NCBI GenBank assembly: GCA_022703745.1 | Contig: JAKLDB010000001.1 | Coordinates: 1-51,766 of the forward strand | Direction of reading: 5' to 3' | Length of the DNA stretch: 51,766 nt | Origin: Patescibacteria group bacterium | GTDB taxonomy: Bacteria; Patescibacteriota; Kazan-3B-28 | Shown: positions 7,661-30,462 of the stretch, one piece after another | How the letters are laid out: each line of letters begins with the position of its first letter | How positions within the stretch are numbered: the first letter of the stretch is position 1 | Position numbers and translations under genes: made by a program | The notes under the pieces: model-generated | Database searches by the model: none | The model's input: only the letters and a program-made list of their open reading frames with translations | What the model was told of the DNA's origin: nothing

Positions 7661-9787
7661 ATGGAAAAAAGCTTTAATTTTGTTGAACTAGAGCCAGAAA
7701 TTTATCGCCTGTGGGAAAAGGTGGGGGCTTTTACGCCCAAAATAGATCCAAAGAAAAAGCCATATGTGATTACAATGCCACCCCCGAATGCATATGACCA
7801 ATTGCATATTGGGCATGCGTTGTTTGTGGCGGTGGAAGACATTATGGTTCGCTACCACAGGCTTAAGGGGGAGCCCACGTTGTGGCTACCGGGAGCAGAT
7901 CATGCGGGGTTGGGGAGCCAAGTCTTTTTCGAAAAGCTATTGCAGAAGGAAAGAGGAATCAGCCGCTTTGAGTTGGGTAGAGAAAAATTTGTGGATGAAT
8001 TGCATAAGCATATGACAGCTACTCGTGAAGTAATGGAGAACCAATTGCGCAAGCTTGGTGCTAGCTGTGATTGGACTCGGAAGAAGTTTACCCTAGACCC
8101 AGATGTAAGTAAGGCGGTGTATTACACCTTCAAGAAAATGTATGACGAGGGATTGATTTACCGAGGGGAACGGATTGTAAATTGGTGTAGTAAGTGTGCG
8201 ACTGGACTCTCGGACTTGGAGGTAGATCACAGAGAGGTAGAAGGAACGCTTACTTATGTGAAGTACCCCTTTGTCGATGGTTCTGGGTTTATGGTAGTTG
8301 CAACAACTCGTCCAGAAACAATGTTTGGAGATACTGCAGTTGCGGTGAACCCAAGCGATAAAAGATATAAGGACCTGATTGGAAAAACTCTTAAGCTTCC
8401 TCTGACTGAAAGGGAGATACCAGTAATTGCGGATGAAGTGGTGGACAAAGATTTTGGTACTGGTGCGGTAAAAGTTACACCGGCACATGATCCAACTGAC
8501 TTTGAAATTGCGGGAAGACACAATCTTCCACAGATTTTGGTTATCGACGAGAGAGGGAAGATGGCGGAGATAGTTGGTTCACCTTACGCAGGGATGAAGG
8601 CAGCGGAAGCCAGGGAAAAAGTGTTGGCTGACTTAGAGAAGCTTGGATTAGTGGAAAAACAGGTGAAGCATATACATAGTGTAGGGCACTGCGAAAAGTG
8701 TGGAACAATGTTGGAGCCGTTTGTTTCAAGACAGTGGTTTGTAAAAATAGAGCCTTTAGCTAAGCCAGCTATTGAGGCGGTGAAGACGGGAAAGATCAAA
8801 TTTATTCCAGAACGTTTTGAAAAAATATATTTCAACTGGATGAATAATATTCGGGATTGGAATATTAGTAGACAAGTTTGGTGGGGACATCGGGTTCCGG
8901 TGTACTATCTAGTTTCGGACAAAGAAAAGTTTGTTGTAGCAGAGAGTGCGGAGGAGGCAAAGATTTCTTTAGGAGGGCCAGTGGAACAAGATCCCGATAC
9001 TCTAGACACATGGTTCTCTTCGGCATTGTGGCCATTTACTACTTTAGGTTGGCCAGAATCCACTCCTGACTTCAAATACTTTTATCCGACAACAGTGATG
9101 GAGACCGCATATGATATTATCTTTTTCTGGGTAGCGCGGATGATAATGATGGGCTTGTACTGTACTGGGAAAGTCCCTTTTAGTATGGTCTTTTTCAATG
9201 GATTAGTGAGAGATAGTCAGGGCCAGAAGATATCCAAGTCGAAGGGGAATATTGTGGACCCGCTGGTAATGGTTGAGAAATATGGGGCAGATGCCCTAAG
9301 GATGGGCCTTATTGTCGGGACAGCTGCAGGAAACGATACCAATGTTTCTGAAGACAAGATACGAGCATACCGAAACTTTGCCAATAAAATCTGGAATGCA
9401 GCACGGTTTGTGACACTTAAACAACCCAAGGGGGTGGCTATAGATAAAGTAGAACTAAATGAAAGAGACAAAGAGGTGCTGAAAGAATTTGGTGGGGTAG
9501 TGGGTACCCTTACCAAGCTGATGGAAGACTATCAGTTTGGTCAGGCAGGTGAACTTATTTATGAATATTTTTGGCACACGTTCTGCGACAAGATAATTGA
9601 GGAGTATAAGAATCAGCTGGATGATAACGCCAGAAGTAAAGCAGCCGGAGCAGTACTTCACCATATTCTAAAAAACTCTCTCATCTTATTACACCCATTC
9701 GTGCCGTTTGCTACAGAGGCGGTATGGCAAGAGCTTTATGACGGAGAGGTAATAACTGCGAATTGGCCAACTAGTCGACCAAATTGA
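7661..9787 (+). CDS. valS: Valine--tRNA ligase, short form without the C-terminal coiled-coil domain
   Basis: 708 aa. HIGH motif (QLHIGHAL), editing-domain blocks TTRPETMFGDTAVAVNP and GTGAVKVTPAHDPTDFEIAG, and KMSKS variant KISKSKGN are present. The protein ends right after LLHPFVPFATEAVWQEL...NWP. Confidence 0.9.
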   Translation: MEKSFNFVELEPEIYRLWEKVGAFTPKIDPKKKPYVITMPPPNAYDQLHIGHALFVAVEDIMVRYHRLKGEPTLWLPGADHAGLGSQVFFEKLLQKERGISRFELGREKFVDELHKHMTATREVMENQLRKLGASCDWTRKKFTLDPDVSKAVYYTFKKMYDEGLIYRGERIVNWCSKCATGLSDLEVDHREVEGTLTYVKYPFVDGSGFMVVATTRPETMFGDTAVAVNPSDKRYKDLIGKTLKLPLTEREIPVIADEVVDKDFGTGAVKVTPAHDPTDFEIAGRHNLPQILVIDERGKMAEIVGSPYAGMKAAEAREKVLADLEKLGLVEKQVKHIHSVGHCEKCGTMLEPFVSRQWFVKIEPLAKPAIEAVKTGKIKFIPERFEKIYFNWMNNIRDWNISRQVWWGHRVPVYYLVSDKEKFVVAESAEEAKISLGGPVEQDPDTLDTWFSSALWPFTTLGWPESTPDFKYFYPTTVMETAYDIIFFWVARMIMMGLYCTGKVPFSMVFFNGLVRDSQGQKISKSKGNIVDPLVMVEKYGADALRMGLIVGTAAGNDTNVSEDKIRAYRNFANKIWNAARFVTLKQPKGVAIDKVELNERDKEVLKEFGGVVGTLTKLMEDYQFGQAGELIYEYFWHTFCDKIIEEYKNQLDDNARSKAAGAVLHHILKNSLILLHPFVPFATEAVWQELYDGEVITANWPTSRPN

Positions 9788-10466
9788 GTAAGAAGTTGGG
9801 AAGAGAGGAAACAATACCACTACCGCCAGAGGCGGTGTATTGGGGTTTGTAGACTTTGACTATTCCTCCAGAAGGGAATTCCATTAGCACCCATTGGGTG
9901 GTTTCGGCAACAATTAATGCACGGTAGTTTTGCTGGTAGTTGGTGTAGGCCATTGAGTCACTGATTGGGGGATAGGCAAGACGATCTTGCATCCACATAG
10001 TCTCTGCTCCAGTTGCTTTGTTGAAGCTGTGGATACTTTCATTGGGGAAGATGACTAGGATATTACTACCTTGGCCATACCAGAATCTGCCTCCATCTTG
10101 GTAGGCGTAGTATAGGTCGCTGTTGATTGGAGGGAGGATACCAACAAGGCTGTCGTCGGGGGTTTCAGCTGGGGAGGTTGTCTGATTTGGTTGGGGACTT
10201 CCCATCATAGTCGAAGACATGATGGCATCTTTTTTGATTTGGTTTGGATCAAGTGGCCAAGTAATATCTAGAAATTTTCCAGTAAAAGTAGAAGATGAGC
10301 TATCTTCTGGCTTCTGTAAGATAGAGAGGATTGTGTTTTGTTCTTCTGCGGTAAGTTGGCGCTCAGACTGGGCGGGAGAGGAGAGTTTGGTTAGTACAGG
10401 AACAGCCTCGGCAACGATAAGGCCGAGAAAAATCATGGTTAGAAATAAGTGACGAAGCTTTGGCAT
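9771..10466 (-). CDS. Hypothetical secreted protein, last gene of the T4SS-like operon
   Basis: 231 aa with N-terminal signal/anchor LFLTMIFLGLIVAEAV. I recognised no family motif. It starts 54 nt downstream of the PilB-like gene and overlaps the valS 3' end convergently by 17 nt. Confidence 0.45.
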   Translation of the reverse strand: MPKLRHLFLTMIFLGLIVAEAVPVLTKLSSPAQSERQLTAEEQNTILSILQKPEDSSSSTFTGKFLDITWPLDPNQIKKDAIMSSTMMGSPQPNQTTSPAETPDDSLVGILPPINSDLYYAYQDGGRFWYGQGSNILVIFPNESIHSFNKATGAETMWMQDRLAYPPISDSMAYTNYQQNYRALIVAETTQWVLMEFPSGGIVKVYKPQYTASGGSGIVSSLPNFLLNLVD

Positions 10467-10520
10467 AAAAGAAAAGCGGTTGAGATTCCGCCCCTTTCAC
10501 CTCTGATTTCAGTATAGCAC

Positions 10521-12173
10521 TTAGTCGGTTTCGTTTCCTCCGACAACCCGAAGTAGCTCATCTAGAGAGGTTGTGCCTTCCAGTACTCGGGCTAATCCAT
10601 CTTGGGCGAGGGTAATCATTCCTTGAGAAATGGCTAATTGGGCAAGTTCGGTTGCACTCCCACCTCCATTAATCTTTTCTTTTATTTCCGGAGTGATCCG
10701 CAACACTTCGAAGATGCCAATGCGGCCATGGTATCCTGTTCCATTGCAAGCGTCGCATCCTTTGGGGCGGTAGATAGTTTTGGGGAGAGCAGAAGGAGAG
10801 ATGGATTTGATTTTTTCTAAATCCACACCTTCTGGTGAGTAGGCTTCTTTGCATTTGGGGCAGAGGCGACGAACTAGTCTCTGGGCGATAACGAGACGAA
10901 GAGCGTCGGAGAATAGCTTGGGTTGGGCACCGAGTTCTACTAGTCGGGGAATAGCGCCTGCAGCGTCATTGGTGTGCAGGGTGGAGAGGACGAGGTGTCC
11001 AGTTAGTGCGGCATCTACCGCAATATTGGCAGTTTCTTTGTCCCGGATTTCTCCGACTAGAATAATGTCTGGGTCTTGGCGGACGATAGAACGAAGGGCG
11101 TTGGCGAAGGTATAGTCTTCTTCTGCGTTGACTTGGGTTTGGGTAATTCCTTGGAGGCGGTATTCTACAGGGTCTTCTACGGTAATAATCTTTGAATCTG
11201 GTTTGTTGATAGTATTCAGGATTGCGTAAAGAGTGGTGGTTTTACCAGAACCGGTAGGGCCGGTGTTTAGGATAAGGCCATTGGGTTCGTGGATTGCAGA
11301 GTCTACCCATTGTTTTACTTCAGGTGAGAAACCGATCTCATCTAAGTTGATAAAGCTTCCTTCTTGGGGGAGCAGACGTAGAACAGCAGATTCTCCATAT
11401 TGTGTGGGGAGGATTGAAACGCGGATGTCGTAGGTTCCTTTGGGAGTGTGGATGGAGAAGCGTCCATCTTGGGCAGTTTCGGTGAGGTTGAGTTTTAGTT
11501 GGGCCAACATCTTAATGCGGTTGGTCAAAGCGTCTAACCGATCCAAGGGAAGGTTGGTAATGTCGTGGAGAACACCGTCTAGTCGGAAGCGTATACGGAC
11601 ACCTTCTTTGGTAGGTTCGATATGAATGTCTGAAGCACTCAGGCCAATAGCGCCAGCAAAAATAGTTTCAGTTAGCTCGCTGGTTGAGGCGGTAGTGAGA
11701 GCTGTTTGAAGTTCTTCTAAGTTGGTCAGTTTAGAGAATTTTTCCTGTAGTTTGGTGTCGATATTTATATCGTCAACTTTAGTTTGGGTAGGGGAAAAGG
11801 TGTCGTAGACTCCCAGTAGATATTTCATTGAGGAGGGGGACACCAGTACTGGCTTGAATTCAAATTCGTCTAGTGCAGAAAGCTTCTTTAGGGCATCTAT
11901 GGTCATGGGATCTTCTGGGTTTGAAAGTGCGAGGGAGATTTTAATCCCATCTTTTTCATAGGCAAAAATGTTGGCGGAATGGGCGAGGTCTTTGGGAACA
12001 ATGCTAACGGCAGATGGATTGGGTTGGAAGCCAACCATGTTTTGGTAAGTGAGGTTTAGTTCAGACGCCTTCTTCTGGGTATATTCCTCTTCCTTCTTTC
12101 GTTGAAGATTGGTTACAAACTGCTCCATTGGAGCGTTGTCTTCACTGTTAGAATGAGGGGTTTGGTCGGTCAT
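10521..12173 (-). CDS. GspE/PilB-family secretion/pilus-assembly ATPase
   Basis: 550 aa. A T2SSE_N-like N1 region (KISLALSNPEDPMTIDALKKL) is present. Walker A is GPTGSGKTTT (about nt 11238-11261). Asp/His boxes (VGEIRD, STLHTND) are present. The tetracysteine motif is CPKC...CDACNGTGYHGR. Confidence 0.85.
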   Translation of the reverse strand: MTDQTPHSNSEDNAPMEQFVTNLQRKKEEEYTQKKASELNLTYQNMVGFQPNPSAVSIVPKDLAHSANIFAYEKDGIKISLALSNPEDPMTIDALKKLSALDEFEFKPVLVSPSSMKYLLGVYDTFSPTQTKVDDINIDTKLQEKFSKLTNLEELQTALTTASTSELTETIFAGAIGLSASDIHIEPTKEGVRIRFRLDGVLHDITNLPLDRLDALTNRIKMLAQLKLNLTETAQDGRFSIHTPKGTYDIRVSILPTQYGESAVLRLLPQEGSFINLDEIGFSPEVKQWVDSAIHEPNGLILNTGPTGSGKTTTLYAILNTINKPDSKIITVEDPVEYRLQGITQTQVNAEEDYTFANALRSIVRQDPDIILVGEIRDKETANIAVDAALTGHLVLSTLHTNDAAGAIPRLVELGAQPKLFSDALRLVIAQRLVRRLCPKCKEAYSPEGVDLEKIKSISPSALPKTIYRPKGCDACNGTGYHGRIGIFEVLRITPEIKEKINGGGSATELAQLAISQGMITLAQDGLARVLEGTTSLDELLRVVGGNETD

Positions 12174-12174
12174 G

Positions 12175-13464
12175 TTATTTAGAGTTTATTTTTACAGTAG
12201 ATGTGTAAGATGTATTGTCCCAGCTGATTGCCTCGACGCTATTGGTTAGGGCGAAGGGGGCATCTGTTTCTACTGTAGCAGAAAAGTAGAGTTCAAATCG
12301 GTTAGTTTTCTGTTTAGGGGTGAGATTGTGGCCTGTTACCCAGGCGTCTGGGAGTGGTTGGGGAGTAGAGCGGTTATCATAGAAGATCTTGCCACTGCCA
12401 GAGACATATTTGAGGTTGGAGGGCAATATGTCTTTTACGGAGAAGGTCTTGGTTTCATTTTCAAGATTGGATGTTTCAATGGAGATATAGAAATCTAGTT
12501 GGGCATTTTTTGGCGCAAATATTCGAGTACCCCATGCTTCATCTTCGTTGGCACGACCGAGTAAGAAGAGGTTGCAAATAGTACAACTAGCTGGAGGCTG
12601 GGTAGCATCCATAGAGTCTTCTAGGGAGCTTTCAGGAGTAGTAGTGCGGATATATACTTTGTCAGATAGACCATCTAACTCATTTGGTTCGTAGATGCTG
12701 GCAATATTCTCCCAATTGCCAACGGCGGTAGCGGTAACCGAGAAGTTGATTTCCACAACAACTGTCTGGGTAGTGGGACTAACCTTTATTACATAGTGGC
12801 CAAGAGAACTTGCGGTTAGTCTAGATTCTTGTGAGTTATTTACTTGAATAGTCCCGGTAAAGTCGTGGAAAGAGTTGGGGATTTTATCCTCAAGGATTAG
12901 GGTATGACTTCCGCCCAAGTTTGTTGCTTCCGCTCTAATACGGAATTGAATAGTACTTTCTACGGGAAGAGTGACGAAGTGGACTGGTTGACCACCGATA
13001 ATGGCTGTCTTGGAGAGACGGGTAATAACAAGTTGGTTTGCGGTGGAACCTGGTGTGGTGGTTTCTGGTACTGGGGCAAGTCCGCCTTCTGTCGGATTGT
13101 TGGGATCTGTTCCACGCTCTTTTTCAATGCCATCTAATACTCCATCTCCATCTGTGTCGGGGTTGGTGGGGTCGATTCCTAGAGCGATTTCTCTATCATT
13201 AGTAAGACCGTCGTTGTCGTGATCAGACGAGCCAGTTGGGCGAATGCTGTTATTCCCACTAACATTTGATTGATAGTTCTTGCTATTGGCTAAGGCGAAG
13301 ATCGGGTCGAGGAGGTCTGTTTTGCGTTCTTCTGCTGTTCGGCTTCCCCAACGTTCTTCGATTCCGGTAGTTTCTCTTGTAAAAGTAACAGTCAGTACTG
13401 CGATTAGTGTTAGGATCCCAACTGTTCCCCAAAAGACAACACCGATTACGCTTACAGGACGCAT
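12175..13464 (-). CDS. Membrane-anchored surface protein with thrombospondin-type-3-like Ca-binding repeats and two DUF11-like beta-sandwich repeats
   Basis: 429 aa. The N-terminal TM helix is VIGVVFWGTVGILTLIAVLTV. Ca-binding-type repeats read DHDNDGLTNDRE...DPTNPDTDGDGVLDGIE...DPNNP. Two modules contain LEDKIPNSF... and VKDILPSNLKYVSGSG, a DUF11-like pattern. Confidence 0.55.
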   Translation of the reverse strand: MRPVSVIGVVFWGTVGILTLIAVLTVTFTRETTGIEERWGSRTAEERKTDLLDPIFALANSKNYQSNVSGNNSIRPTGSSDHDNDGLTNDREIALGIDPTNPDTDGDGVLDGIEKERGTDPNNPTEGGLAPVPETTTPGSTANQLVITRLSKTAIIGGQPVHFVTLPVESTIQFRIRAEATNLGGSHTLILEDKIPNSFHDFTGTIQVNNSQESRLTASSLGHYVIKVSPTTQTVVVEINFSVTATAVGNWENIASIYEPNELDGLSDKVYIRTTTPESSLEDSMDATQPPASCTICNLFLLGRANEDEAWGTRIFAPKNAQLDFYISIETSNLENETKTFSVKDILPSNLKYVSGSGKIFYDNRSTPQPLPDAWVTGHNLTPKQKTNRFELYFSATVETDAPFALTNSVEAISWDNTSYTSTVKINSK

Positions 13465-13466
13465 GA

Positions 13467-15257
13467 TTAACCTCCTGTGAGGTTACGGAGCTCTGCTAAC
13501 TGACTGGGGTCTGAAGTTACAATACGGTCTTCGATGTAGCTGGCGACTACTTTGATGGCAGCATGGTTGGTACCAGCGAAGAAGAGACCTTCTCCGACAT
13601 TTGATTCAAGTAGGAGGAATTTTTCTCCTTGAGTAAGATTGAAGGTTTCTGCAACTATGTCGATAGAGGCAGGGGATTGGCGAAGAAGCAACTGAAGCGA
13701 AGAGTTTGCCACAACTGCTTTGCCATATTTAGAGCCCAAGAAGTCTTCGATGTCCTGGGTGATTGTAGTAAGTCCGAGGTAGTATTTACGGGCACGTTTT
13801 GCGATGGAGTAAAGGAACTTGGCAGAGTCTTCATATTGCATAAGAATCCAGGCCTCGTCTATTACCAGCATTCGCTTCTTCATGTCGAAACGAATTTTAT
13901 TCCAAATGTAGTTTAGGACAACATACATGGCGATTGGTCGGAGAGTGTCTTCTAAGTCACGGATAGAAAAGACCATTAGGCCACGATCTAATTCAAAGTT
14001 GGTTGGTTGGTTGAAAACGCCAGCAAAGGTTCCTGTAGTATATTTTGTTAGACGCAAAGCTAGGCTTTCGGCTCCGGTCATATTGCCCAAAACGTTGTAT
14101 AAGTCTTCCATTGTTGGGGCAGGATTCTGGTGGGTCTTGATATCTCCGGTAATGTCTTTTAGGGCGTAGGTTTCCATTAGAGCTTTTTCCATTAAAGCTT
14201 CTTCTTCTGGGGTGAGCTTGCCGAGCATTAGGTTCATTAAACCCATTAGAGTAATAACAGAAGCGCGGAGAACTTTTTCCCCGTCAGCATTGGTGCCAAG
14301 ATTGGGTAAATCAAATGGGTTGATTCGTTTTTCACTATTCAAACTTACTGAAATATAGCTGCCTCCAACAGCATCTGCCAAAGCCTTATATTCGTTTTCG
14401 GGATCGATAACAATGACATCGGTATCGAACATCATGCTACGGAGAACCTCTAGTTTGATGGCATAGGATTTACCACCACCAGATTTGGCGAAGACTACCA
14501 TGTTGGCGTTTTCTAGTTCGAACCGATCGAAGAGGATGAGGGAATTGTTGTGGCGATTGATACCGTAAAGGACACCTTTCCCGGTGGTGAGATCGACTGA
14601 GGTGAAGGGGAAGGTAGTTCCTACTGAAGAGGTGGTCATGTTGCGGACAACATCTAGTTCGTCTAGGCCAAGAGGAAGACTGGAGTTGAAGCCCTGCTCC
14701 ATTTGTAGCAGTGCTTGTTTGGTGTAAACCAGTTGGCCACCAAGGGTAGTTTCAATGTGGCTGGTTACGCTATCTAACTCTTCTTCGGTGGAAGCGTATA
14801 TGGTGAAGTAGAGGGCATAGTGGAAGAACTTTTCGATACCTCTTTGAAGGCGATCACGCAACTCTTCCGCATCGTTGTAGGCGATTTCCAGTTCGGGGTC
14901 GCGGATGGCTCCCTTTTCCTCGTTGATACGAAGAGACGATTCCATTTCGCTTACTTTCCGACGCAAGACACGCATAATATTTGCGTTGTCTACGGGATAG
15001 ATGTGCATGGAAATATCTATATTGACGTCGTAGTTGATAAGGGGGGCGAGCCAATTGGTTTCGATGTATTGAGGGTAGGTTAGAACAAAGAAACTACGGA
15101 CAAACTTACCGTTTAGAAGTAGGCGATCGTTTTTGATCTCCATCGCGGCAGGGGCGATAAGATCACGGACAGAGATAAGGCCACTTTCAAAATTTTCCAC
15201 AGCTTTCTTAGCGGCTTGCTCTTCGGCAGTTTGAATTTTCTTTTTTCTTCCAAACAT
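13467..15257 (-). CDS. virB4: VirB4/TrbE/TraE-family type IV secretion ATPase (Gram-positive-type length)
   Basis: 596 aa. Walker A is VVFAKSGGGKSY (nt 14466-14495). Walker B is MLVIDEAWILM. GLTTITQDIEDF is also present. The start ATG overlaps the upstream stop as TAATG. Confidence 0.85.
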   Translation of the reverse strand: MFGRKKKIQTAEEQAAKKAVENFESGLISVRDLIAPAAMEIKNDRLLLNGKFVRSFFVLTYPQYIETNWLAPLINYDVNIDISMHIYPVDNANIMRVLRRKVSEMESSLRINEEKGAIRDPELEIAYNDAEELRDRLQRGIEKFFHYALYFTIYASTEEELDSVTSHIETTLGGQLVYTKQALLQMEQGFNSSLPLGLDELDVVRNMTTSSVGTTFPFTSVDLTTGKGVLYGINRHNNSLILFDRFELENANMVVFAKSGGGKSYAIKLEVLRSMMFDTDVIVIDPENEYKALADAVGGSYISVSLNSEKRINPFDLPNLGTNADGEKVLRASVITLMGLMNLMLGKLTPEEEALMEKALMETYALKDITGDIKTHQNPAPTMEDLYNVLGNMTGAESLALRLTKYTTGTFAGVFNQPTNFELDRGLMVFSIRDLEDTLRPIAMYVVLNYIWNKIRFDMKKRMLVIDEAWILMQYEDSAKFLYSIAKRARKYYLGLTTITQDIEDFLGSKYGKAVVANSSLQLLLRQSPASIDIVAETFNLTQGEKFLLLESNVGEGLFFAGTNHAAIKVVASYIEDRIVTSDPSQLAELRNLTGG

Positions 15258-15934
15258 TATTGGGCCTCCGCATCTTTTACATTACGGATAATAGAAGCAT
15301 CGACATTGCTGATGGAAAAGAGCTTTTGCCGACGAGCAGAATCACTGTTGTAGCTGGTATAGAAGAGCTCGATTAATTCTTGGGTATTGAGCTGAACATT
15401 GTTTAGGCCAAGACTAGCTAGGCCGTTTGAGATAAGGCTAGTTTTTTCGGCGATGGCATTTTTTATCTCTTCGAACTGACGACTAGGGGAGCTCTTCTTT
15501 TTTCCAAACAAGTGGAACCCACCGGCAAGTAGGGGTGTTTCATTGTGAGGGACGATTACATAAAAGGTTTTGCTCATAATATTAGCGACTCCAACAAGGT
15601 CGCGAACAAAAGTGGTGTATTCGTTTGTTTGGGTACGAAGCAAGTCGTTTGTCTGCTTGTTGGCTGCTTGTTCGAGACTGGTGAGATAGTCGGTCAGATC
15701 GAGTGTGCGAGATTGCATTACGATTTGGATAGGAAAAGAAAGGCCGTTGAGAAAGTTTTGGTAGCTTTCCAGTAGAGCTTGTTGTTCGTCTGCAGATTTC
15801 AGGCTGAAGTTGATGGCATTGACCATTAAGACGCTGCGGTAGCCACCGTCCTTCAAGACCACTATCCCATCACGAATTTCTTGGACGGGAAGGAACTGTT
15901 GGGTACTTTTGAATTTTGGTTGTTTGCGTGCCAT
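15257..15934 (-). CDS. Hypothetical protein resembling a VirB4 N-terminal domain, with no ATPase motifs
   Basis: 225 aa. FLPVQEIRDGIVVLKDGGYRSVLMVNAINFSLKS...FPIQIVMQSRTLD parallels LIAPAAMEIKNDRLLLNGKFVRSFFVLTYP...NIDISMHIYPVD at the start of the adjacent VirB4. No P-loop is present. Confidence 0.5.
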   Translation of the reverse strand: MARKQPKFKSTQQFLPVQEIRDGIVVLKDGGYRSVLMVNAINFSLKSADEQQALLESYQNFLNGLSFPIQIVMQSRTLDLTDYLTSLEQAANKQTNDLLRTQTNEYTTFVRDLVGVANIMSKTFYVIVPHNETPLLAGGFHLFGKKKSSPSRQFEEIKNAIAEKTSLISNGLASLGLNNVQLNTQELIELFYTSYNSDSARRQKLFSISNVDASIIRNVKDAEAQ

Positions 15935-15940
15935 ATTGGT

Positions 15941-16477
15941 TTAGAGTTGGTCAACATCTTTAAGTACGTCTTCGACATCGGTAGGTTCGACTGTAGTTTT
16001 CGGGGGAGTGATAGTGTTGATTGATGTGGCTGTAAATTCTGTTTGTTCATTGTTCATTGTACCACCCGTATCTAAGATATGGGCGAGCTGTTCGATCTGC
16101 ATTTTGATTTGTTTTCCAGACCGACGATCTGCAAGTTCTGTTTTGGTGTCTTTGATATCCGAAGCGCTAACTTTTATGTTTTTTACTTTAGCTCTGTGTT
16201 CTTTATGCCAAACCAAGTTCTTGGATGAACGGATAAAGTGAAGTAGGTTCATTAGGAATATGCCAAAGGGACGGCCGTTGATCTTTCCAAATGCAAGTAA
16301 GAGGGTTAGCCCACCAGCGATAAGGCTGACAACGATAAATATGAACCAGCTCATAGTGGATTGATAGGTGATAAAGATGATTGAGCCACCAGCAAGCAAA
16401 TAAAGGAACTGCTTTAGGGTAAGTGGACCAATCAGCTTATCTTCACGGGTAACGTCTTGTGGTATTTTTACTGCCAT
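15941..16477 (-). CDS. PrgI/VirB3-like small membrane protein
   Basis: 178 aa. The N-terminus KIPQDVTREDKLIGPLTLKQFLYLL is followed by two TM helices. Its position immediately upstream of VirB4 matches Gram-positive T4SS loci. A hydrophilic C-terminal tail is present. Confidence 0.55.
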   Translation of the reverse strand: MAVKIPQDVTREDKLIGPLTLKQFLYLLAGGSIIFITYQSTMSWFIFIVVSLIAGGLTLLLAFGKINGRPFGIFLMNLLHFIRSSKNLVWHKEHRAKVKNIKVSASDIKDTKTELADRRSGKQIKMQIEQLAHILDTGGTMNNEQTEFTATSINTITPPKTTVEPTDVEDVLKDVDQL

Positions 16478-16482
16478 AAGAA

Positions 16483-19077
16483 TTAAGTATTAAGTCCTTT
16501 ATTTATTTGAGTAAAGACATCCAATGCTTTATTAAATTCCATATCGGCAACACCTTTTCGGCTGTTTAGGTTGGCGCCGGGGTTCATTGTTGATACACCA
16601 GAGGTGTCGAAAAATCCAGAGAATTGATCCAGTAGGTCTGGGTCTAACATCTCGCCCAATTTAGCATTGGGGCTTGGATTGTTGGCAATGGCGGAACTTA
16701 TTCGATCTATTGCATCTTGAACAAACTTGGCGTCGTAGGATTTTCCATATTCAATATTTTTAATATTCTTCGCGATTTCTGCGTAAGCTTTTGTTACTGG
16801 GATGCTATCAATTTTCTGCTTAGCTTCGTCAAGTTTGGGTTGTAGCTCTCTTAGTTCAACTATGTTGCTGATCTGTCCCGTTGTAATATTGCTATTTTTT
16901 GATTCCATAGCCAGATTGCGAGTGAGGGCGAGGTCATCAAAACCGACTCCATTAGCAAGTGCGGTGGCGATACCCCTCATGGCAGGAGCGTTAACAAATA
17001 TATTGTTAATTTCAGTTTCTTTCTGTTCGGGAGAAAGGTCTGTACGGTTCATGATTTTTTCTAATTTTTCACGATTAAAGTCTGCCAACTCGAGATCGCC
17101 ATCTCTGGTGGTCGATAAAGCGTCACGGGTAGCTTCGTCCGAAATAGTTTTTAATACTTGTTCGCTAGCATTGCGGATGTTGATATTTATATTCCCCGTA
17201 GATTGTTTAAGTTGTTCAACTCTATTATTGAGAGTTGCTTGTTTGATATAGTCTTCGCTGGTAGGTTGATTAGGGGTTGTTCTGGCTGAGGCTGAATTAC
17301 GACCTGGTATTGGATTAAGATTTACTTTGTTATGGATACCGAGTTCGGAACGTATTTCGTTGTTTTCTAGTTCGTTATCTTTAATAACATCATTGAATGC
17401 CTTTATGGCTTCATATTTTCCGGCTCCACTACTTCTATTAGTTTCGCGTTTTAAGAGTATAAGCATAGCTGATAGTTTCATTTTTGCGTCGTTATCGTTC
17501 GGATTGCTTTTGATTTTTGCAATTATCTCCTCGATAGCTTTCTGTAGTTCGCCTGCATTACGGTCCTTCTTGGCTTCAGAATCAACTTCATCCATAATAG
17601 CGGCCATATATGCCTTATTGTCTGCATCAACGGCGAGTCCGAGATTAGTCTTTTCGGCCCTATCTTTAATTCTGTTTTTAGCAGCTTTGGCTGCTTCTGG
17701 ATCTGCAGCTAACCAAGCATCAAAGCCACCATGTTCCTTGGCTCCGGGTTCTTGTTCAAGTTGAATTTTAATATTACCTTCAAGTGTTTGATTGTTTTTG
17801 TTATAGCGACTAACAGCACGGTCTCGCGCAGCTTTGTTTGCAAAGGAAGCTCGTTGTTTGGCTTGATTTTCAACCTGTTGTTTGCGATCAGCAATTTTAC
17901 CAGCTGCCCAACGATAATCGGGTATATACCTACCTACCCGGAATCCTACATCCTTACCCCTAGCCTTAACGTCGTTCCAAATACCTTTACCAAAATCTCT
18001 ACCAGCCTTACCTACATAGTTGGGGAGCATATTGGTAAGAGCACTGACTGGGACTTTTAGCATTGCCGGTACAGAAGATGCAGCAATGAGAACTCCGAGA
18101 CCGATGATTAGAAGAAACAGTTGTCCAGTTCCAGTTAGTGTGCCTGGATCGGTTTGGGCTTGATGTAGAAACATATCAATAGTTGCAGCGCTGTTGGTTG
18201 GCATGATTAGACGGGCAATGCCGATAAGAATAAAGGAGAGGGGGAGGACTAGGACCCAACGCAAGACATCTCCAAACCAGTTTCCACCTAATCCCTGGAG
18301 TTCCTTTTGAGGTAGGACGCTAATTGCAGCTTGGATTGGTCCGAAGATAGCTAAGATTGCCAAACGGATAGCACGTTCGACTAAGACGAACATTAGGCGG
18401 AATAGAACGTAGGCGATAATAGCTTGTGCGGCCATTACTTCAAAAGCTATCCATACTTTATCCCAAGAATCTCCAGGGGTAGCTCCAAGACCCATAAAGT
18501 CTTTTGGCAGAACCAGACCATGTAGCCATTCATGCATTTGGGAAGTGTCTCCTCCCTGCATTCCAAAGGCGGGGATAAGGCTACTGAAGTTTCGTAAGGC
18601 ATCACCCATTTCGATTAATAACTGGACAATTACAAGGCTGAGGTTGGCTAGGGCGATAGCGGTAATAAGGGCGGTAACAGCTTTTTTGAAGTTGTAACTA
18701 GCGTTACGGGTGATGATGAAAATAGCGAAGATGAAGAGGGCGAGGAAGAAGATGATATTAGTAAGATCAAGCATGGCTCTCCATGCGGTGTGTAATTGTT
18801 CTCCAAAGATAAGGCTATTTTGGCCCGGCAAGATAACGTTGATAATCAGGCTAAGGAACAAAACAGATGCCCATTGGATAAGGTTGCCGAGAGAGGTGAA
18901 TAAACCAATCAATATAGAGCTTGTTAGTTCGGCACCTTTTTCCCCAAGCCAAGAAGCATAGGCGGGGAGGGCCATTAGAGTTGTAGCAGTAGTTGTGGTT
19001 ATCAAAAGGCCACCCAGAATAAGTTGTGGGCGTTTGATATTTCTAAGAGAGGTAATAAAACTAATGAAGCGCTTCAT
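16483..19077 (-). CDS. Large polytopic membrane protein, VirB6/TrbL-like by topology and position, with a hydrophilic C-terminal half of about 500 aa
   Basis: 864 aa from ATG 19075-19077 (MKRFISFITS). The ORF-track TTG start at 19134 sits inside the -35 box. The N-terminal roughly 380 aa contain about 7-8 hydrophobic helices. The rest is K/E/N/D-rich and helical. Confidence 0.5.
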   Translation of the reverse strand: MKRFISFITSLRNIKRPQLILGGLLITTTTATTLMALPAYASWLGEKGAELTSSILIGLFTSLGNLIQWASVLFLSLIINVILPGQNSLIFGEQLHTAWRAMLDLTNIIFFLALFIFAIFIITRNASYNFKKAVTALITAIALANLSLVIVQLLIEMGDALRNFSSLIPAFGMQGGDTSQMHEWLHGLVLPKDFMGLGATPGDSWDKVWIAFEVMAAQAIIAYVLFRLMFVLVERAIRLAILAIFGPIQAAISVLPQKELQGLGGNWFGDVLRWVLVLPLSFILIGIARLIMPTNSAATIDMFLHQAQTDPGTLTGTGQLFLLIIGLGVLIAASSVPAMLKVPVSALTNMLPNYVGKAGRDFGKGIWNDVKARGKDVGFRVGRYIPDYRWAAGKIADRKQQVENQAKQRASFANKAARDRAVSRYNKNNQTLEGNIKIQLEQEPGAKEHGGFDAWLAADPEAAKAAKNRIKDRAEKTNLGLAVDADNKAYMAAIMDEVDSEAKKDRNAGELQKAIEEIIAKIKSNPNDNDAKMKLSAMLILLKRETNRSSGAGKYEAIKAFNDVIKDNELENNEIRSELGIHNKVNLNPIPGRNSASARTTPNQPTSEDYIKQATLNNRVEQLKQSTGNININIRNASEQVLKTISDEATRDALSTTRDGDLELADFNREKLEKIMNRTDLSPEQKETEINNIFVNAPAMRGIATALANGVGFDDLALTRNLAMESKNSNITTGQISNIVELRELQPKLDEAKQKIDSIPVTKAYAEIAKNIKNIEYGKSYDAKFVQDAIDRISSAIANNPSPNAKLGEMLDPDLLDQFSGFFDTSGVSTMNPGANLNSRKGVADMEFNKALDVFTQINKGLNT

Positions 19078-19105
19078 CGGTTTTGTTTTTGATTTTTGTA
19101 CTTTT

Positions 19106-19134
19106 ATTCTAGCAAAAAAATCGTATTTTGTCAA
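19106..19134 (-). promoter_or_regulatory. Near-consensus sigma70-type promoter of the T4SS-like operon
   Basis: On the minus strand the sequence reads TTGACA (19129-19134), a 17-nt spacer, then TAGAAT (19106-19111). It lies about 28 nt upstream of ATG 19077. Confidence 0.55.
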
Positions 19135-22742: not shown

Positions 22743-22832
22743 GGAGGTGTGGCCGAGTGGTTTATGGCGCTAGTCTTGAAAACTAGTTAGGGCGCAAGCT
22801 CTTCACAGGTTCGAATCCTGTCGCCTCCGCCA
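22743..22832 (+). tRNA. tRNA-Ser (anticodon TGA), CCA encoded
   Basis: Acceptor stem GGAGGTG pairs with CGCCTCC. The anticodon loop is CTTGAAA. A long variable arm and the T-loop GGTTCGAATCC are present. The gene ends in GCCA. Confidence 0.9.
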
Positions 22833-22852
22833 GAAGGTATAATATAGATAGC

Positions 22853-23326
22853 ATGGACCAAGAGGATCAAAAAATTTTATACGAATGGGAAGCCCCCGAG
22901 TTTTCTGGGGGAAGTACAACTGGCTGGAGTGGCTGGACTTTGGCATTCTTGCTAATAGCTGCAATATGGACAGCATGGGTTGGGCAATGGGTGACATTGG
23001 CAGTGGTGGTAATGGTGGGACTGGTAATCTATCTTTTGCGAAGAACCCAACCAAGGACTTTTTGGCATCGCATTATGGAAACGGGTGTGGAGGTTGGTGG
23101 GAAGGTATATCCATATAACAAGCTGAAGTCCTTTTGGATTGTGTTGGGGCAGGAGGCGAGGGTTGTTAATTTATTACCAAATAGGAAGTTCGGATTATTG
23201 TTGACTTTACAAATAGGCGATGCGGACGTGGAGAAAATAAGGGAGACTTTAGGAAAGTTCTTGCCAGAGGATGCCAGTCGGGGAGAAGATACTGTGGATA
23301 GGATTGGCCGGTTCTTCAAGCTGTAG
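22853..23326 (+). CDS. Hypothetical two-TM membrane protein
   Basis: 157 aa. YEWEAPEF is followed by two hydrophobic helices and a soluble C-terminal domain. TATAAT at 22838-22843 lies 9 nt upstream of the ATG. Confidence 0.5.
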   Translation: MDQEDQKILYEWEAPEFSGGSTTGWSGWTLAFLLIAAIWTAWVGQWVTLAVVVMVGLVIYLLRRTQPRTFWHRIMETGVEVGGKVYPYNKLKSFWIVLGQEARVVNLLPNRKFGLLLTLQIGDADVEKIRETLGKFLPEDASRGEDTVDRIGRFFKL

Positions 23327-23337
23327 CCAGAAAAGAT

Positions 23338-23414
23338 GCGCCCGTAGCTCAGTGGATTAGAGCGTCTGGCTACGGACCAGAAGGTCGGGGGTTCGACTCC
23401 CTTCGGGCGCGCCA
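23338..23414 (+). tRNA. tRNA-Arg (anticodon ACG), CCA encoded
   Basis: Acceptor stem GCGCCCG pairs with CGGGCGC. The anticodon loop is CTACGGA. The T-loop is GGTTCGACTCC. Length is 77 nt. Confidence 0.9.
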
Positions 23415-23504
23415 GGAGAGGTGGCTGAGTGGTCGAAAGCGGCACACTGCTAACGTGTTATACCCGCAAGGGTATCGCGGGTTCGAATCCCGCCCTCTCC
23501 GCCA
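23415..23504 (+). tRNA. tRNA-Ser (anticodon GCT), CCA encoded
   Basis: Acceptor stem GGAGAGG pairs with CCTCTCC. The anticodon loop is CTGCTAA. A long variable arm is present. The gene starts on the nucleotide immediately after the CCA of tRNA-Arg. Confidence 0.85.
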
Positions 23505-23515
23505 ACTGGTATATA

Positions 23516-23977
23516 ATGGTGGATATTCATCTGCAATACTTTCAACTAGCCATCCGTGAAGCACGGAAGGCTTTAGTGAAGAAAGAAGTTCCTGTTGGTG
23601 CGGTGGTGGTGAATACAAAAGGTGAGGTCGTTGGTCGGGGATTCAACCAGACTCATACAAAAAAGGATGGATTGATGCATGCCGAATTGGTAGCTTTACG
23701 GCAAGCCCAGAAAAAAATCGGAGATTGGCGGATGGACGAGGTAAGTATGTATGTAACACTCGAACCATGTTTAATGTGTCTAGGTGCATTGGGTAATGCA
23801 AGAGTAAAGAATGTTTATTATTTACTAGCCGATCCATTATTTGGTTCGGTAGAAAGCAAGATGTCTAGGGCGCAACTGAAAAAACTTTTTCCCAAGTTGA
23901 ATTGTCAGAGAATGAAAGATGATGGTACGGTAGCGGAGCTGATGAAAGGGTTTTTCCGAGATCTTCGGAAGAGATAG
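23516..23977 (+). CDS. tadA: tRNA-specific adenosine deaminase TadA
   Basis: 153 aa from ATG 23516 (MVDIHLQYFQLAIREA). The longer ORF-track version runs through a tRNA gene. CDA zinc motifs HAELVAL and PCLMCLGAL are present. Confidence 0.85.
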   Translation: MVDIHLQYFQLAIREARKALVKKEVPVGAVVVNTKGEVVGRGFNQTHTKKDGLMHAELVALRQAQKKIGDWRMDEVSMYVTLEPCLMCLGALGNARVKNVYYLLADPLFGSVESKMSRAQLKKLFPKLNCQRMKDDGTVAELMKGFFRDLRKR

Positions 23978-23991
23978 ATTACAATGAATAC

Positions 23992-24081
23992 GGAGGCGTG
24001 GCCGAGCGGTTGATGGCGCTGGTCTCGAAAACCGGTTGGGGTTTAGGCCCCTCACAGGTTCGAATCCTGTCGCCTCCGCCA
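23992..24081 (+). tRNA. tRNA-Ser (anticodon CGA), CCA encoded
   Basis: Acceptor stem GGAGGCG pairs with CGCCTCC. The anticodon loop is CTCGAAA. A long variable arm is present. The T-arm is identical to that of tRNA-Ser(TGA). Confidence 0.9.
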
Positions 24082-27491: not shown

Positions 27492-29789
27492 ATGAAAAAA
27501 CTGATTACCATTCTGGGGGTTTTTGTATTAATCGCGGGAGGGCCATTATCTCTCTCTCGTTTTGCATTGGCACAGGGGGCGGAACTTAGAGCACAACTGG
27601 TTTCGACTAATTCTCCGGTTACCGCAAAGGTTGGTACGGAGGTTCAGTTTACGGTAGAGGTGAAGAATACTGGGACTGCGACTTGGAGCAATAGCGGCAA
27701 CAATCCCCTGAACCTGGGGACAATTAGGCCAATAGATCACAAGAGTAGATTTTGGACACAAGGCTGGATTGGGGATAATCGACCGGCGACCATGCAAGAA
27801 ACAGCAATTGCGCCTGGTGAAACAGCTCATTTTGTTTTCTCTGCAGTAGCAACAGGGAAAGGCAAGGTGACGGATAACTTTGGATTGGTTATGGAAAGGG
27901 TGGCTTGGTTGAATCTTGTAATTCCTTTGACTATCAATGTACAACCAGCTGTTTTCAAGGGAGAGTTGGTGAGTCAGTCTACTTCGACAATAGAACTGAA
28001 AGCACAGGAAAGCGCAACTGTTACCGTTAATGTGAAGAATACGGGAGATATTGTTTGGGCTAATGGTGGGGCGGGAGCGATAAAGATAGGGACTAGTGCT
28101 CCGTATGATCGGACAAGTAACTTTTATCACTCAAGCTGGCTAAGTAAGAATCGGGTTGTATCGGCAGGTACGGCAATTCAGCCAGGGAGTAGTGGCGATT
28201 TTGTTTTTACAGTACAAGCCCCAAAGAAGACGGGAACATTCAGGGAAGAATTTAGTTTGGTGGCGGAAGGTACCGCATGGATACCGCTAAAGTTTTCACT
28301 AACCATGAAAGTGGTACCGGCTATTTGGTCTGCTGAACTGGTGAATCAATCTGCGGGAGATGTTTCTGTGGCACCGGGGGATACGGCTACGTTGTGGGTG
28401 GAAATTAAGAATACTGGTAATACGGTTTGGAAGAGCGATGGTCTCAATGCGGTGAAACTTGGAACAGCGCGAAGTTTGGATAGATCAAGTGTTTTCCAAG
28501 ATAGTTCGTGGTTGAGTAAGAACAGAGTAGTTACGGCAAGCTCAATAGAGGTTGCGCCAGGTGCAGTTGGACGTTTTGAATTTACAATTAAAGCTCCGAA
28601 CAAAATAGGGAAATATACAGAATACTTTCGTCCAGTTGCAGAAGGTATTACTTGGTTGAATGATAGTGGTCTGCATTGGAATTTTGCGGTTGAAGAAGAA
28701 CTAACAATTAAGGATCCAATTAGGGTTGGGATTACTTCAACAACCGACTCAATTACAGTGCAGGGAGATAGTTTTGTGATTCGGAGAGGAAGTGACAAAG
28801 GACTAGTCAAAAAAGTTTCTGGTAGCAGTATTACGGCAACTGCTTTCAATGGCGGATATAGTCTAAACACAGGCGAATCGGTGAATGATTGGCTACGTTT
28901 TATTCCTTTGAATAAGACGTTGTTGACAGTGAAGACGAGTGGCATTGGGAATAGTTACAATACATTCCGTGGAGTGATTGATGTGCGCAGATCAAGTTTG
29001 TCTGGAAATGTTTGGGTGGTGAACGTATTGGAATTTGAAGATTATATGAAGGGAATTGCAGAGGTTCCAGAAGGATGGCCGGTGGAAGCCCAGAAAGCTC
29101 AGATGGTAGCGGCTCGTACTTATGCCACCACCAAACTAACAGCACCTGTAGCTGATATTTTTGATATCTATGATGACACAAGAGACCAGGTATATTACGG
29201 TTACGACTACGAAGAATCTCGTCCCGGCTTGTGTGCAGCAGCGGAGGCTACCCGAGGGGTGATTATCAGATATAATGGTACTCCAATTTCCGCCTACTAT
29301 TTCTCAGATAGTGGAGGATATACCGAAAATGTAGAAAACGTTTGGACAAAAACAATTCCATATTTGCGAGCAGTTCCAGATCCATATGCCAAGCCGATCG
29401 AATGGACAGCAACTCTTACCCAGGACTATTTACAAACTCGGTTCAATGAAACGTTGAATATGGCTCCAGGTACGGATGTAATTACGGGAGTAGCGGTGAC
29501 AGAACGTTTTCCTTCATCCCGAGTGAAGACCGTGACTTTTACTTTGCAGAGTGGACGTACGGTTCCGGTATCTTCCAAAACATTCGACTACCTAACTAAT
29601 GGTAATGAAATTAAAAGTATGAAGTTTGATGTTGTCCCTTCGGGAACAGACTTTGTCTTTTCCGGGCAAGGATGGGGACATGGTGTTGGCATGGCTCAGT
29701 GGGGAGCAAAGAATATGGCTTTGCAAGGGAAGAGTTATCAGGAGATTTTGACTTACTATTACACTGGTGTTACTGTCAGTTCCAGATAA
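27492..29789 (+). CDS. SpoIID/LytB-domain peptidoglycan-remodelling protein with three N-terminal Ig-like (NBR1-like) repeats
   Basis: 765 aa with a signal peptide. The C-terminal blocks AQKAQMVAARTYA, YYFSDSGGYTENVENVW and GWGHGVGMAQWGA are SpoIID/LytB hallmarks. Confidence 0.8.
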   Translation: MKKLITILGVFVLIAGGPLSLSRFALAQGAELRAQLVSTNSPVTAKVGTEVQFTVEVKNTGTATWSNSGNNPLNLGTIRPIDHKSRFWTQGWIGDNRPATMQETAIAPGETAHFVFSAVATGKGKVTDNFGLVMERVAWLNLVIPLTINVQPAVFKGELVSQSTSTIELKAQESATVTVNVKNTGDIVWANGGAGAIKIGTSAPYDRTSNFYHSSWLSKNRVVSAGTAIQPGSSGDFVFTVQAPKKTGTFREEFSLVAEGTAWIPLKFSLTMKVVPAIWSAELVNQSAGDVSVAPGDTATLWVEIKNTGNTVWKSDGLNAVKLGTARSLDRSSVFQDSSWLSKNRVVTASSIEVAPGAVGRFEFTIKAPNKIGKYTEYFRPVAEGITWLNDSGLHWNFAVEEELTIKDPIRVGITSTTDSITVQGDSFVIRRGSDKGLVKKVSGSSITATAFNGGYSLNTGESVNDWLRFIPLNKTLLTVKTSGIGNSYNTFRGVIDVRRSSLSGNVWVVNVLEFEDYMKGIAEVPEGWPVEAQKAQMVAARTYATTKLTAPVADIFDIYDDTRDQVYYGYDYEESRPGLCAAAEATRGVIIRYNGTPISAYYFSDSGGYTENVENVWTKTIPYLRAVPDPYAKPIEWTATLTQDYLQTRFNETLNMAPGTDVITGVAVTERFPSSRVKTVTFTLQSGRTVPVSSKTFDYLTNGNEIKSMKFDVVPSGTDFVFSGQGWGHGVGMAQWGAKNMALQGKSYQEILTYYYTGVTVSSR
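27582..28691 (+). repeat. Three tandem protein-level repeats of about 122 aa inside the SpoIID-like gene
   Basis: The recurring pattern is V.V.(V/I)KNTG...W...G...(L/I/K).(L/I)GT...DR(S/T)S.F...SWLS.NR......I.PG....F.F...AP...G...E.F..VAEG..W(L/I), at about aa 31-152, 153-276 and 277-400. Confidence 0.6.
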
Positions 29790-30462
29790 ATTAGTTAGAT
29801 TTGTTCGAGATGCAATTGCACCAGCTTTTTGCGTAGGGTGTGGTGTAGTAGGTGGTTGGTTGTGTACGGACTGTGCCCAGAAAATCTCTGTGATGCGAGA
29901 ACAGGTGTGTTGTAGATGTGGTAGGGCTTCTATAAACGGAAGAACATGTGAGAAGTGCAAAAGATATCTGGATCTAGATGGTGTGATTGTGGCGGCAGGT
30001 TACGAAGGTGGGCCAATGCGAGAATTGGTTCACAAGTTTAAATACAATGGGTTAACCGATTTGGCTACAATTCTTTTCTGGGTTTTGTTCCAAGCAGTTA
30101 TGACTCAGGAATGGCAAGGATGGGTGGTTGTTCCCATGCCTTTGCATTCAAGTAAGTTTCATGAGAGGGGTTTTAACCAAACAGATCTTCTTGCAAGAAA
30201 ACTTGCTGGATATTTGGGAGCGGAATACAGGCCGAATTGGCTAAGACGGGTACGTGCGACTGTGACCCAGACGAGGCTTAGCCAACTCGAGCGACAGGCT
30301 AATGTGTACAAAGCATTTTCATCTTCTGTGGATTTACGGGGAGAGAAGATTTTGTTGGTAGATGATGTCATGACCACAGGAGCAACTCTTGGGGCGGCAG
30401 CACAAGCTCTCAAAGACGCTGGGGCTAAGGTGGTCTGGGGAGTCGTAGTGGCGAGGGGTTAG
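29767..30462 (+). CDS. comFC: ComF-family (ComFC-like) phosphoribosyltransferase-fold competence protein
   Basis: 231 aa. The N-terminus has 4-Cys clusters (CVGCG...CTDC, CCRCG...CEKC). The PRTase motif is ILLVDDVMTTGATL. GTG at 29767 is the only in-frame start candidate upstream of the Cys clusters. Confidence 0.7.
   Translation: MLLSVPDKLVRFVRDAIAPAFCVGCGVVGGWLCTDCAQKISVMREQVCCRCGRASINGRTCEKCKRYLDLDGVIVAAGYEGGPMRELVHKFKYNGLTDLATILFWVLFQAVMTQEWQGWVVVPMPLHSSKFHERGFNQTDLLARKLAGYLGAEYRPNWLRRVRATVTQTRLSQLERQANVYKAFSSSVDLRGEKILLVDDVMTTGATLGAAAQALKDAGAKVVWGVVVARG

Follow-up and report, generated by a model that had tools for sequence, protein, structure and literature searches.

We analyzed a 51,766-nt stretch of a Patescibacteria genome (contig JAKLDB010000001.1, GenBank assembly GCA_022703745.1; hereafter the window), in which a compact minus-strand cluster combines genes of a type IV secretion system (T4SS) with a gene for an ATPase of the PilB/GspE type. 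The VirB4 ATPase of the cluster shares 82% identity with its counterpart in 'candidate division Kazan bacterium RIFCSPHIGHO2_01_FULL_44_14' and 74–75% with those of other named Kazan genomes; the Kazan lineage corresponds to the GTDB class Kazan-3B-28 of the Patescibacteria (PMC13293708; PMC12102498). Comparison loci, designated below by L numbers, were retrieved through homologues of VirB4, PilB, and p231 (the product of the last gene in the cluster), with flanks of up to 10 kb on each side.

The cluster consists of seven minus-strand open reading frames (ORFs), separated in gene order by 5 nt, 6 nt, a 1-nt overlap, 2 nt, 1 nt, and 54 nt (Table 1). The first ORF (16483–19134) would encode 883 aa from a TTG codon or 864 aa from the ATG at 19077, and the latter is most plausibly the start of the gene. 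A sigma-70-like promoter precedes it that matches 11 of 12 consensus positions and is the top site of this type across 9.4–25 kb; two sites within one mismatch of the consensus were found in 51.8 kb, against 0.27 expected by chance. The first-pass annotation of the window had described seven packed genes behind a near-consensus promoter, and the coordinates, gaps, and promoter were all confirmed. The seven genes are predicted to be read from one promoter as a single transcript. A hairpin in the 54-nt gap after PilB was considered as a sign of a separate transcript for the last gene, and was set aside, as it resembles the consensus only weakly and lies directly against the following start codon.

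Table 1 Genes and signals of the T4SS–PilB cluster and its accessory region in the window
Feature	Position	Strand	Basis or remark
Extended VirB6-like polytopic protein, 864 aa	16483..19077	-	Topology, operon position, weak orthologue matches
PrgI/VirB3-like membrane protein, 178 aa	15941..16477	-	PF12666 36.8 bits, cut-off 27
TrsD/TraC-like protein, detached VirB4 N-terminal domain, 225 aa	15257..15934	-	VirB4 N-terminal model positions
VirB4 ATPase, MPF-FATA/CD1110 type, 596 aa	13467..15257	-	NF045971 390 bits, cut-off 325
Surface protein anchored in the membrane, bearing Ca-binding TSP3 repeats plus DUF11-like beta domains, 429 aa	12175..13464	-	TSP3_bac 38.5 bits, cut-off 25
PilB/GspE-type extension ATPase, 'orphan' PilB subfamily from candidate phyla radiation (CPR) bacteria, 550 aa	10521..12173	-	T2SSE PF00437 409 bits
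p231, signal-anchored protein, 231 aa	9771..10466	-	Constant partner of PilB in Kazan-type genomes
Sigma-70-like promoter TTGACA-17-TAGAAT with TG extension	19106..19134	-	Precedes the VirB6-like ATG by 29 nt
Weak hairpin resembling a terminator, in the 54 nt that separate PilB from the 231-aa gene	10472..10495	-	Consensus match only
VirB2-like T4SS pilin, 111 aa	24133..24468	-	PF18895 35.0 bits, cut-off 26.6
Second VirB2-like T4SS pilin, 79 aa	24546..24785	-	PF18895 24.8 bits and TrbC/VirB2 23.6 bits, both slightly under cut-off
PEGA and beta-propeller membrane protein, 485 aa	19231..20688	+	PEGA 24.7 bits; divergently transcribed
Bitopic membrane protein with charged N-terminal region, 675 aa	20689..22716	+	Syntenic with the T4SS in Kazan genomes; divergently transcribed
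Membrane protein, 157 aa	22853..23326	+	Syntenic with the cluster in Kazan genomes

The first four genes encode the T4SS core. In addition to its family model, the VirB4 ATPase matches P-loop_TraG (91 bits) and AAA_10 (39 bits), and it covers positions 177–730 of the VirB4 model. The 225-aa protein encoded immediately upstream aligns with positions 2–123 of the CD1110 model and matches the NCBIfam families VirB4_plasma (E 1.4e-12) and TrsD (E 4.8e-6); its scores fall under the whole-protein cut-offs, as expected of a fragment, and its orthologues carry the TraC-like domain PF26593. The two proteins together constitute a split VirB4, which is the commonest arrangement in Patescibacteria (PMC12102498). 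As the first-pass annotation had proposed, profile searches supported the VirB4 and PrgI assignments above cut-off. Its VirB6 assignment found no direct family match, but the topology, the gene position, and weak matches of orthologues fit.

The 864-aa VirB6-like protein has a signal/transmembrane (TM) segment and ~7 TM helices (~8 TM in total) in its first 340 aa, followed by a 520-aa hydrophilic tail. The window protein matched no family in Pfam or NCBIfam, a profile built from seven orthologues gave only noise against PDB sequences, and PHROGs returned no match for any uncharacterized protein, the VirB6-like one included. Among the seven orthologues, two match TrbL/VirB6 of Pfam (best E 2.4e-4), and the L008 orthologue matches the MMCAP2_0566 conjugal transfer family (E 3e-4) and has a precomputed TrbL_3 match. 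Many Patescibacteria loci carry VirB6-like homologues in the same slot upstream of PrgI. We tentatively assign the protein to the VirB6 family, the weakest of the family assignments made here. GC skew is positive in all 2-kb bins of 1–51766 (0.05–0.32), independent of gene strand, with its minimum over the VirB6-like gene (16–18 kb), where GC content (0.41) likewise falls to its lowest value in the window.

Two genes for VirB2-like pilins lie 5 kb upstream of the VirB6-like gene, with three syntenic membrane/beta-propeller genes and a tRNA cluster intervening. The 111-aa pilin has a signal peptide and two hydrophobic helices and matches the Mbov_0395 pilin-like family (E 2e-4); the 79-aa pilin likewise has two hydrophobic helices. 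Their orthologues occupy the same relative position in L007 and L009. Of the intervening genes, that for the 485-aa PEGA/beta-propeller protein is syntenic in all Kazan loci, and the T4SS operon of L012 includes a homologue (E ~1e-30); the protein is a probable accessory component of the T4SS. Four tRNA genes (Ser-tga, Arg-acg, Ser-gct, and Ser-cga) and a TadA-like deaminase gene occupy 22743–24081, between the accessory and the pilin genes. Pfam scans over all large ORFs detected no VirD4/coupling protein, relaxase, integrase, VirB11, VirB8/9/10, PilC, PilM, or T2SSF in the 51.8 kb, and no ORF of the window contains a prepilin motif. The absences listed in the first-pass annotation were thus confirmed, whereas the two VirB2-like pilin genes had been overlooked.

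Judged by family matches and gene order, genes 1–4 are recognizable as the chromosomal, relaxase-free T4SS already published for the ultra-small Patescibacteria, which is derived from MPF-FATA, has VirB2-like pilins, and contains neither a relaxase nor a type IV coupling protein (T4CP) (PMC7427843, PMC10633639, PMC12102498, PMC12857230). This system is genetically essential in Southlakia, the one case in which epibiotic growth is known to require it (PMC10633639). The core order in L005 is pilins, VirB6, PrgI, TraC-like protein, and VirB4, followed by cell-wall hydrolases (amidase, SLT), and L012 has the same core order with a pilin-domain gene last. A Pontibacillus megaplasmid carries the same core as well, in the order pilin-like, VirB6-like, VirB3-like, TrsD-like, and VirB4. 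The Kazan T4SS, with no relaxase or coupling protein nearby, is classed here as a derivative of monoderm MPF-FATA conjugation machinery.

The sixth gene encodes the PilB ATPase. Upstream of the secretion-ATPase domain, the protein has an N-terminal MshEN domain (25.8 bits, cut-off 23.1); its Walker A/B, Asp, and His boxes are intact, as they are in all orthologues, and a tetracysteine Zn motif (CPKC...CDAC) is present. Compared with solved structures, it scored ~380 bits with Geobacter/Myxococcus PilB, 339 with GspE, and 126 with PilT. The PDB sequence search returned no VirB11 chain at E<=1e-30, all 18 matches being PilB, PilF, GspE, or PilT. VirB11-type models scored 58.7 bits (TIGR02788, cut-off 249.95), 60.8 bits (TrbB, 304.55), and 80.7 bits (DotB, 463.3). 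VirB11 proteins are ~330–350 aa long and have neither the MshEN N-domain nor the Zn motif. Given its full PilB architecture and VirB11, TrbB, and DotB scores far below cut-off, the protein is not VirB11-like, and its sequence identifies it as a canonical PilB/GspE with intact catalytic motifs. Against the NCBIfam equivalog models, it scored 485 bits with TIGR02538 (PilB; cut-off 675.65) and 495 bits with TIGR02533 (GspE; cut-off 630.25). Type IV pilus (T4P) machinery is near-universal in CPR (PMC6744442). Among the best 120 PilB homologues (at least 491 bits), no second match came from the same long contigs.

PilB is flanked in the cluster by two proteins of very different constancy. The 429-aa TSP3-repeat protein has one N-terminal TM helix and a DUF11 repeat slightly under cut-off (22.9 bits, cut-off 24), and it varies among relatives in sequence and in length (293–489 aa). 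It probably binds Ca at the cell surface. A single-sequence AlphaFold2 (AF2) model of this protein was unusable (pLDDT 42). By contrast, p231 is encoded next after PilB throughout the Kazan-type loci as well as in L010/L012. Its family comprises 33 homologues, of which the named ones are all from Kazan, and is not known outside this lineage. The protein contains a single TM helix and gave no sequence match in Pfam, NCBIfam, PHROGs, or the PDB. An AF2 model built on a 32-sequence alignment has a confident C-terminal domain, for which Foldseek found nothing in the PDB at E<0.001 (TM-scores <=0.27). PilN, PilO, and GspM were considered as identities for p231, and it was not recognizable as any of them.

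The first-pass annotation had allowed that the adjacency of PilB and the T4SS might be peculiar to this genome. In 13 Kazan-type loci (VirB4 identity 69–98%), which represent ~12 distinct sequences with the window counted among them, a single variable gene (293–489 aa) stands between VirB4 and PilB, and all three genes have the same strand. The gaps between the three genes are <=12 nt in each of the four loci with gene calls (L003, L007, L008, and L009). By contrast, no PilB-like gene was present in the fetched flanks of 77 other Patescibacteria T4SS loci (VirB4 52–63%), 38 of which extended for at least 5 kb on both sides, and in L005 (VirB4 66%) the amidase and SLT genes stand downstream of VirB4 in place of PilB. 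The L010/L012 lineage (VirB4 64%, PilB 46%) retains PilB and a p231 homologue beside valS–tsaD–femAB–murF, but the T4SS core is inverted relative to PilB and divergently transcribed. In L011 and L177, PilB lies beside valS–tsaD with no T4SS within 10 kb. L011 was examined as a T4SS-linked PilB locus and rejected, as the 1786-aa gene upstream of it shows no homology to the T4SS accessory proteins of L012. None of L012, L011, and L177 has the TSP3 protein.

The two parts of the cluster also differ in their rate of divergence. VirB4 is far more conserved across Kazan genomes than PilB, the valyl-tRNA synthetase (ValRS)-like aminoacyl-tRNA synthetase (aaRS), or TsaD, and PilB, unlike VirB4, diverges at the pace of the neighboring housekeeping genes. 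In L003, L007, and L008, respectively, identity to the window was 82, 76, and 70% for VirB4, 63, 53, and 49% for PilB, 66, 67, and 54% for the aaRS, and 60, 54, and 49% for TsaD.

To place PilB, we built a neighbor-joining (NJ) tree of 87 PilBs with 200 bootstraps. The Kazan PilBs formed one clade with those of L012 and L011 and the CPR PilBs of L018, L020, L021, and L024 (98% support), and the PilBs of canonical CPR pilM-pilN-pilO-pilB-pilT-pilC loci (L028, L067, and L085) fell outside it. The non-Kazan members of the clade lie beside polA/fpg, ruvB, or valS–tsaD; except in L012, none has an adjacent T4SS, and none is beside pilC. Three close PilB homologues outside the tree (L175, L176, and L177) are similarly found beside tsaE, ruvB, or valS–tsaD, and none is beside a T4SS or pilC. 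Whereas pilC was nearby in 51 other PilB loci, this was so in 0 of 16 Kazan-type loci, and the orphan subfamily was never beside pilC in any lineage sampled. The first-pass annotation had reasoned that relatives keeping PilB next to pilC would speak against its proposal; that consideration is inapplicable to a subfamily of this kind. Orphan PilB genes were located at 1895–4885 in L018, 10001–12551 in L175, and 1366–3057 in L176, and also in L021 and L024; two members of the subfamily, of 996 aa and 850 aa, carry a second T2SSE ATPase domain as a fusion. Because the subfamily sits among housekeeping genes elsewhere, the T4SS core is inverted in the sister lineage, and polA/fpg lie 7 kb from PilB in the window, the position of PilB is ancestral, and its adjacency to the T4SS is derived and specific to Kazan.

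On balance, the cluster is probably a T4SS operon transcriptionally fused to a resident PilB/p231 pair, so that two host-contact systems are co-expressed and do not form one physical hybrid. The T4SS operon would have come to sit directly upstream of a PilB/p231 pair already resident beside valS–tsaD, and, with the variable TSP3-repeat surface gene, all seven genes would now be under one promoter. PilB would most likely still be the assembly motor of a type IV filament (pilus or pseudopilus), with its platform encoded elsewhere in the genome, and the T4SS, by analogy with Southlakia, probably builds a VirB2-type pilus or channel toward the host cell. We infer both the partner platform of PilB and the functions of the two machines. 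Several points weigh against co-expression as the whole explanation. It assumes a PilC platform elsewhere in the genome, the loci having been seen only within ±10 kb, and no PilC, PilM, or prepilin occurs within 10 kb of PilB in 16 Kazan-type loci. The spacing of <=12 nt from VirB4 through the TSP3 gene to PilB holds class-wide despite a PilB identity of ~50%, and could reflect selection beyond co-expression. The T4SS adjacency persists in L012 even after the inversion, and the PilB scores under the equivalog cut-offs mark it as a divergent member.

The absence of platform and prepilin genes near PilB, together with the class-wide co-operonic arrangement and near-zero intergenic gaps, would suit a true hybrid, in which the VirB4/VirB3/VirB6 inner-membrane complex of a monoderm T4SS offers a docking site to a PilB hexamer that is functionally equivalent to VirB11, TrbB, or DotB and helps to extract or polymerize VirB2-like pilins, or powers substrate transfer. 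The T4SSs of Patescibacteria stand out among monoderm systems by their VirB2-like pilins (PMC12857230), and pilus elaboration in diderms needs both VirB4 and VirB11; a chimera model of VirB4/VirD4 with T4P, proposed for PAPI-1, provides a precedent (PMC12857230). However, other Patescibacteria classes have the same T4SS and VirB2-like pilins with PilB nearby in 0 of 77 loci, and F-type systems make VirB2 pili without VirB11 (PMC12857230). PilB itself retains every PilB-specific feature and nothing VirB11-like, its chromosomal position is older than the T4SS adjacency, and the T4SS core is inverted relative to it in L012. A docked hybrid is unlikely, and recruitment of the PilB hexamer by a pilus-forming monoderm T4SS as its second motor, driving VirB2-like pilus assembly or transfer to or from the host, is at least as doubtful. 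The first-pass proposal that a PilB-type hexamer replaces VirB11 gains no comparative support from these data: the enzyme is a canonical PilB, its closest relatives lie in the same housekeeping neighborhood without a T4SS or with the T4SS core inverted, and monoderm T4SSs, including those of Gram-positive bacteria, have no VirB11 to replace (PMC12857230).

Alternatively, PilB, the TSP3-repeat protein, and p231 might form a small Kazan-specific module of their own, a pseudopilus-like or secretion device displaying the adhesin, which would depend neither on the canonical T4P nor on the T4SS and would do no more than share their promoter. The invariant PilB–p231 pairing in Kazan-type loci, which survives the inversion in L012, the restriction of the p231 family to the lineage, and the separation of this PilB subfamily from the PilBs of T4P loci (98% bootstrap) are in keeping with such a module. 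On the other hand, PilB-family motors are known to work only through a PilC/GspF-type polytopic platform and pilin-like substrates, neither of which the module contains; p231 offers a single TM helix and an orphan fold, and the TSP3 protein does not accompany the pair in L012, L011, or L177. We regard this arrangement as improbable. Far more improbable still is an integrated conjugative element (ICE) or its remnant, with the relaxase, coupling protein, and oriT just beyond the window. The window VirB4 does belong to the conjugative CD1110/MPF-FATA family, and the nearest non-CPR VirB4 relatives sit on plasmids. Nevertheless, the cluster is flanked by housekeeping genes for Fpg, PolA, SIMPL, a Mur ligase, FemAB, TsaD, the ValRS-like aaRS, tRNAs, an SBP, ComFC, DnaE, NusA, and ClpB, and the synteny of the flanks (ValRS-like aaRS, TsaD, FemAB, Mur ligase, PolA, and tRNAs) extends to relatives with VirB4 identities as low as 69%. 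The 51.8 kb contain no relaxase, T4CP, or integrase, and relaxases are found in only ~100 Patescibacteria genomes, rarely near virB4 (PMC12102498). The identity of 64–98% among VirB4 proteins across the relatives indicates vertical inheritance, which also counts against an ICE. On the grounds of synteny across the lineage and gene content, we rejected the ICE as effectively refuted, and the earlier description of T4SS parts without a relaxase or coupling protein in the window was borne out, for a system that is chromosomal.

Several further features of the region were recorded. The leucyl-tRNA synthetase gene is represented by two ORFs on the plus strand (36301–36924, 207 aa, and 36876–38642, 588 aa), which overlap by 49 nt in different frames and reflect either a genuinely split gene or a frameshift; the ValRS-like class I synthetase is separate (7661–9787). 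A ComFC-like competence protein, with a double zinc ribbon and a phosphoribosyltransferase domain, is encoded at 29767–30462 on the plus strand, 17 kb from the PilB gene. Small genes resembling GIY-YIG homing endonucleases are dispersed in the syntenic region of L003, L004, L009, and L010/L012, whereas the window has none.

Patescibacteria rely on contact with a host, and in the sole genetically tractable species the two envelope machines whose essentiality has been shown are the T4SS and type IV pili. The presence of a T4SS in the window in itself adds nothing new. If the fusion with PilB reflects only co-regulation, it provides a handle on how minimal cells coordinate attachment and transfer. 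If PilB did work on the T4SS, type IV secretion would have a new energizing arrangement, in which a PilB acts without PilC and a monoderm T4SS has, for the first time, a function like that of VirB11. Text searches of PMC12102498, PMC10633639, PMC7427843, PMC9894109, and PMC12857230 yielded no PilB-family gene adjacent to virB4 or within a T4SS cluster, and in TM7x two pilB genes lie in pilus loci separate from the T4SS (PMC12206443). Given the lack of mention in those papers, the Kazan-wide PilB operon fusion and the housekeeping-embedded orphan PilB subfamily appear modestly new. The first-pass view that the combination had not been characterized holds for the PilB adjacency only, as this type of T4SS has already been described (PMC7427843, PMC12102498) and is essential in Southlakia (PMC10633639).

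Among known systems, the closest counterparts of the core are the T4SSs of Southlakia epibionticum (SEML1_0006-0019), Nanosynbacter TM7x, and the survey of PMC12102498, with which the Kazan cluster has in common a VirB6-like protein, PrgI/VirB3, a TrsD-like protein, VirB4, and VirB2-like pilins, as well as a chromosomal location, vertical inheritance, and the lack of a clustered relaxase or coupling protein. The window VirB4 is 52–66% identical to the non-Kazan members. Unlike these systems, the Kazan T4SS is limited to two pilin genes, and ~5 kb with accessory genes and tRNAs come between them and the core; the TSP3-repeat protein, PilB, and p231 follow VirB4 in place of an amidase or lytic transglycosylase; and in the fetched loci the cluster is not beside dnaN/dnaA. 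The MPF-FATA T4SSs of Firmicutes and Mycoplasma ICEs (CD1110-type VirB4, Mbov_0395-0397, and pGO1 TrsC/TrsD) resemble it in VirB4 family, TrsD-like protein, and gene order, but in the Kazan cluster VirB4 has neither a relaxase nor a T4CP nor a peptidoglycan hydrolase as its neighbor, and the cluster is not on a mobile element.

The ATPases of type IVa pili and of type II secretion systems (PilB, PilF, and GspE of Geobacter, Myxococcus, Thermus, and Vibrio) share with Kazan PilB an MshEN-type N-domain, an N2 and a C-terminal ATPase domain, and the tetracysteine motif. Unlike them, Kazan PilB comes from a CPR-specific subfamily whose genes never adjoin pilC, pilM, or pilT, and it is co-operonic with a T4SS. 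VirB11, TrbB, and DotB of diderm T4SSs are members of the same secretion-ATPase superfamily, and the Kazan PilB gene, like that of VirB11, lies inside a T4SS operon. A parallel to this linkage is T4P-assisted conjugation, in the thin pilus of IncI R64 and the PAPI-1/ICE systems with VirB4, VirD4, and T4P, where a PilB-family ATPase is genetically linked to VirB4 as in Kazan. The R64 and PAPI-1 clusters, however, contain a whole T4P set (pilins, platform, and peptidase) with a relaxase and a T4CP, and transfer DNA, whereas the Kazan cluster combines its T4SS with the ATPase only and has no DNA-processing genes.

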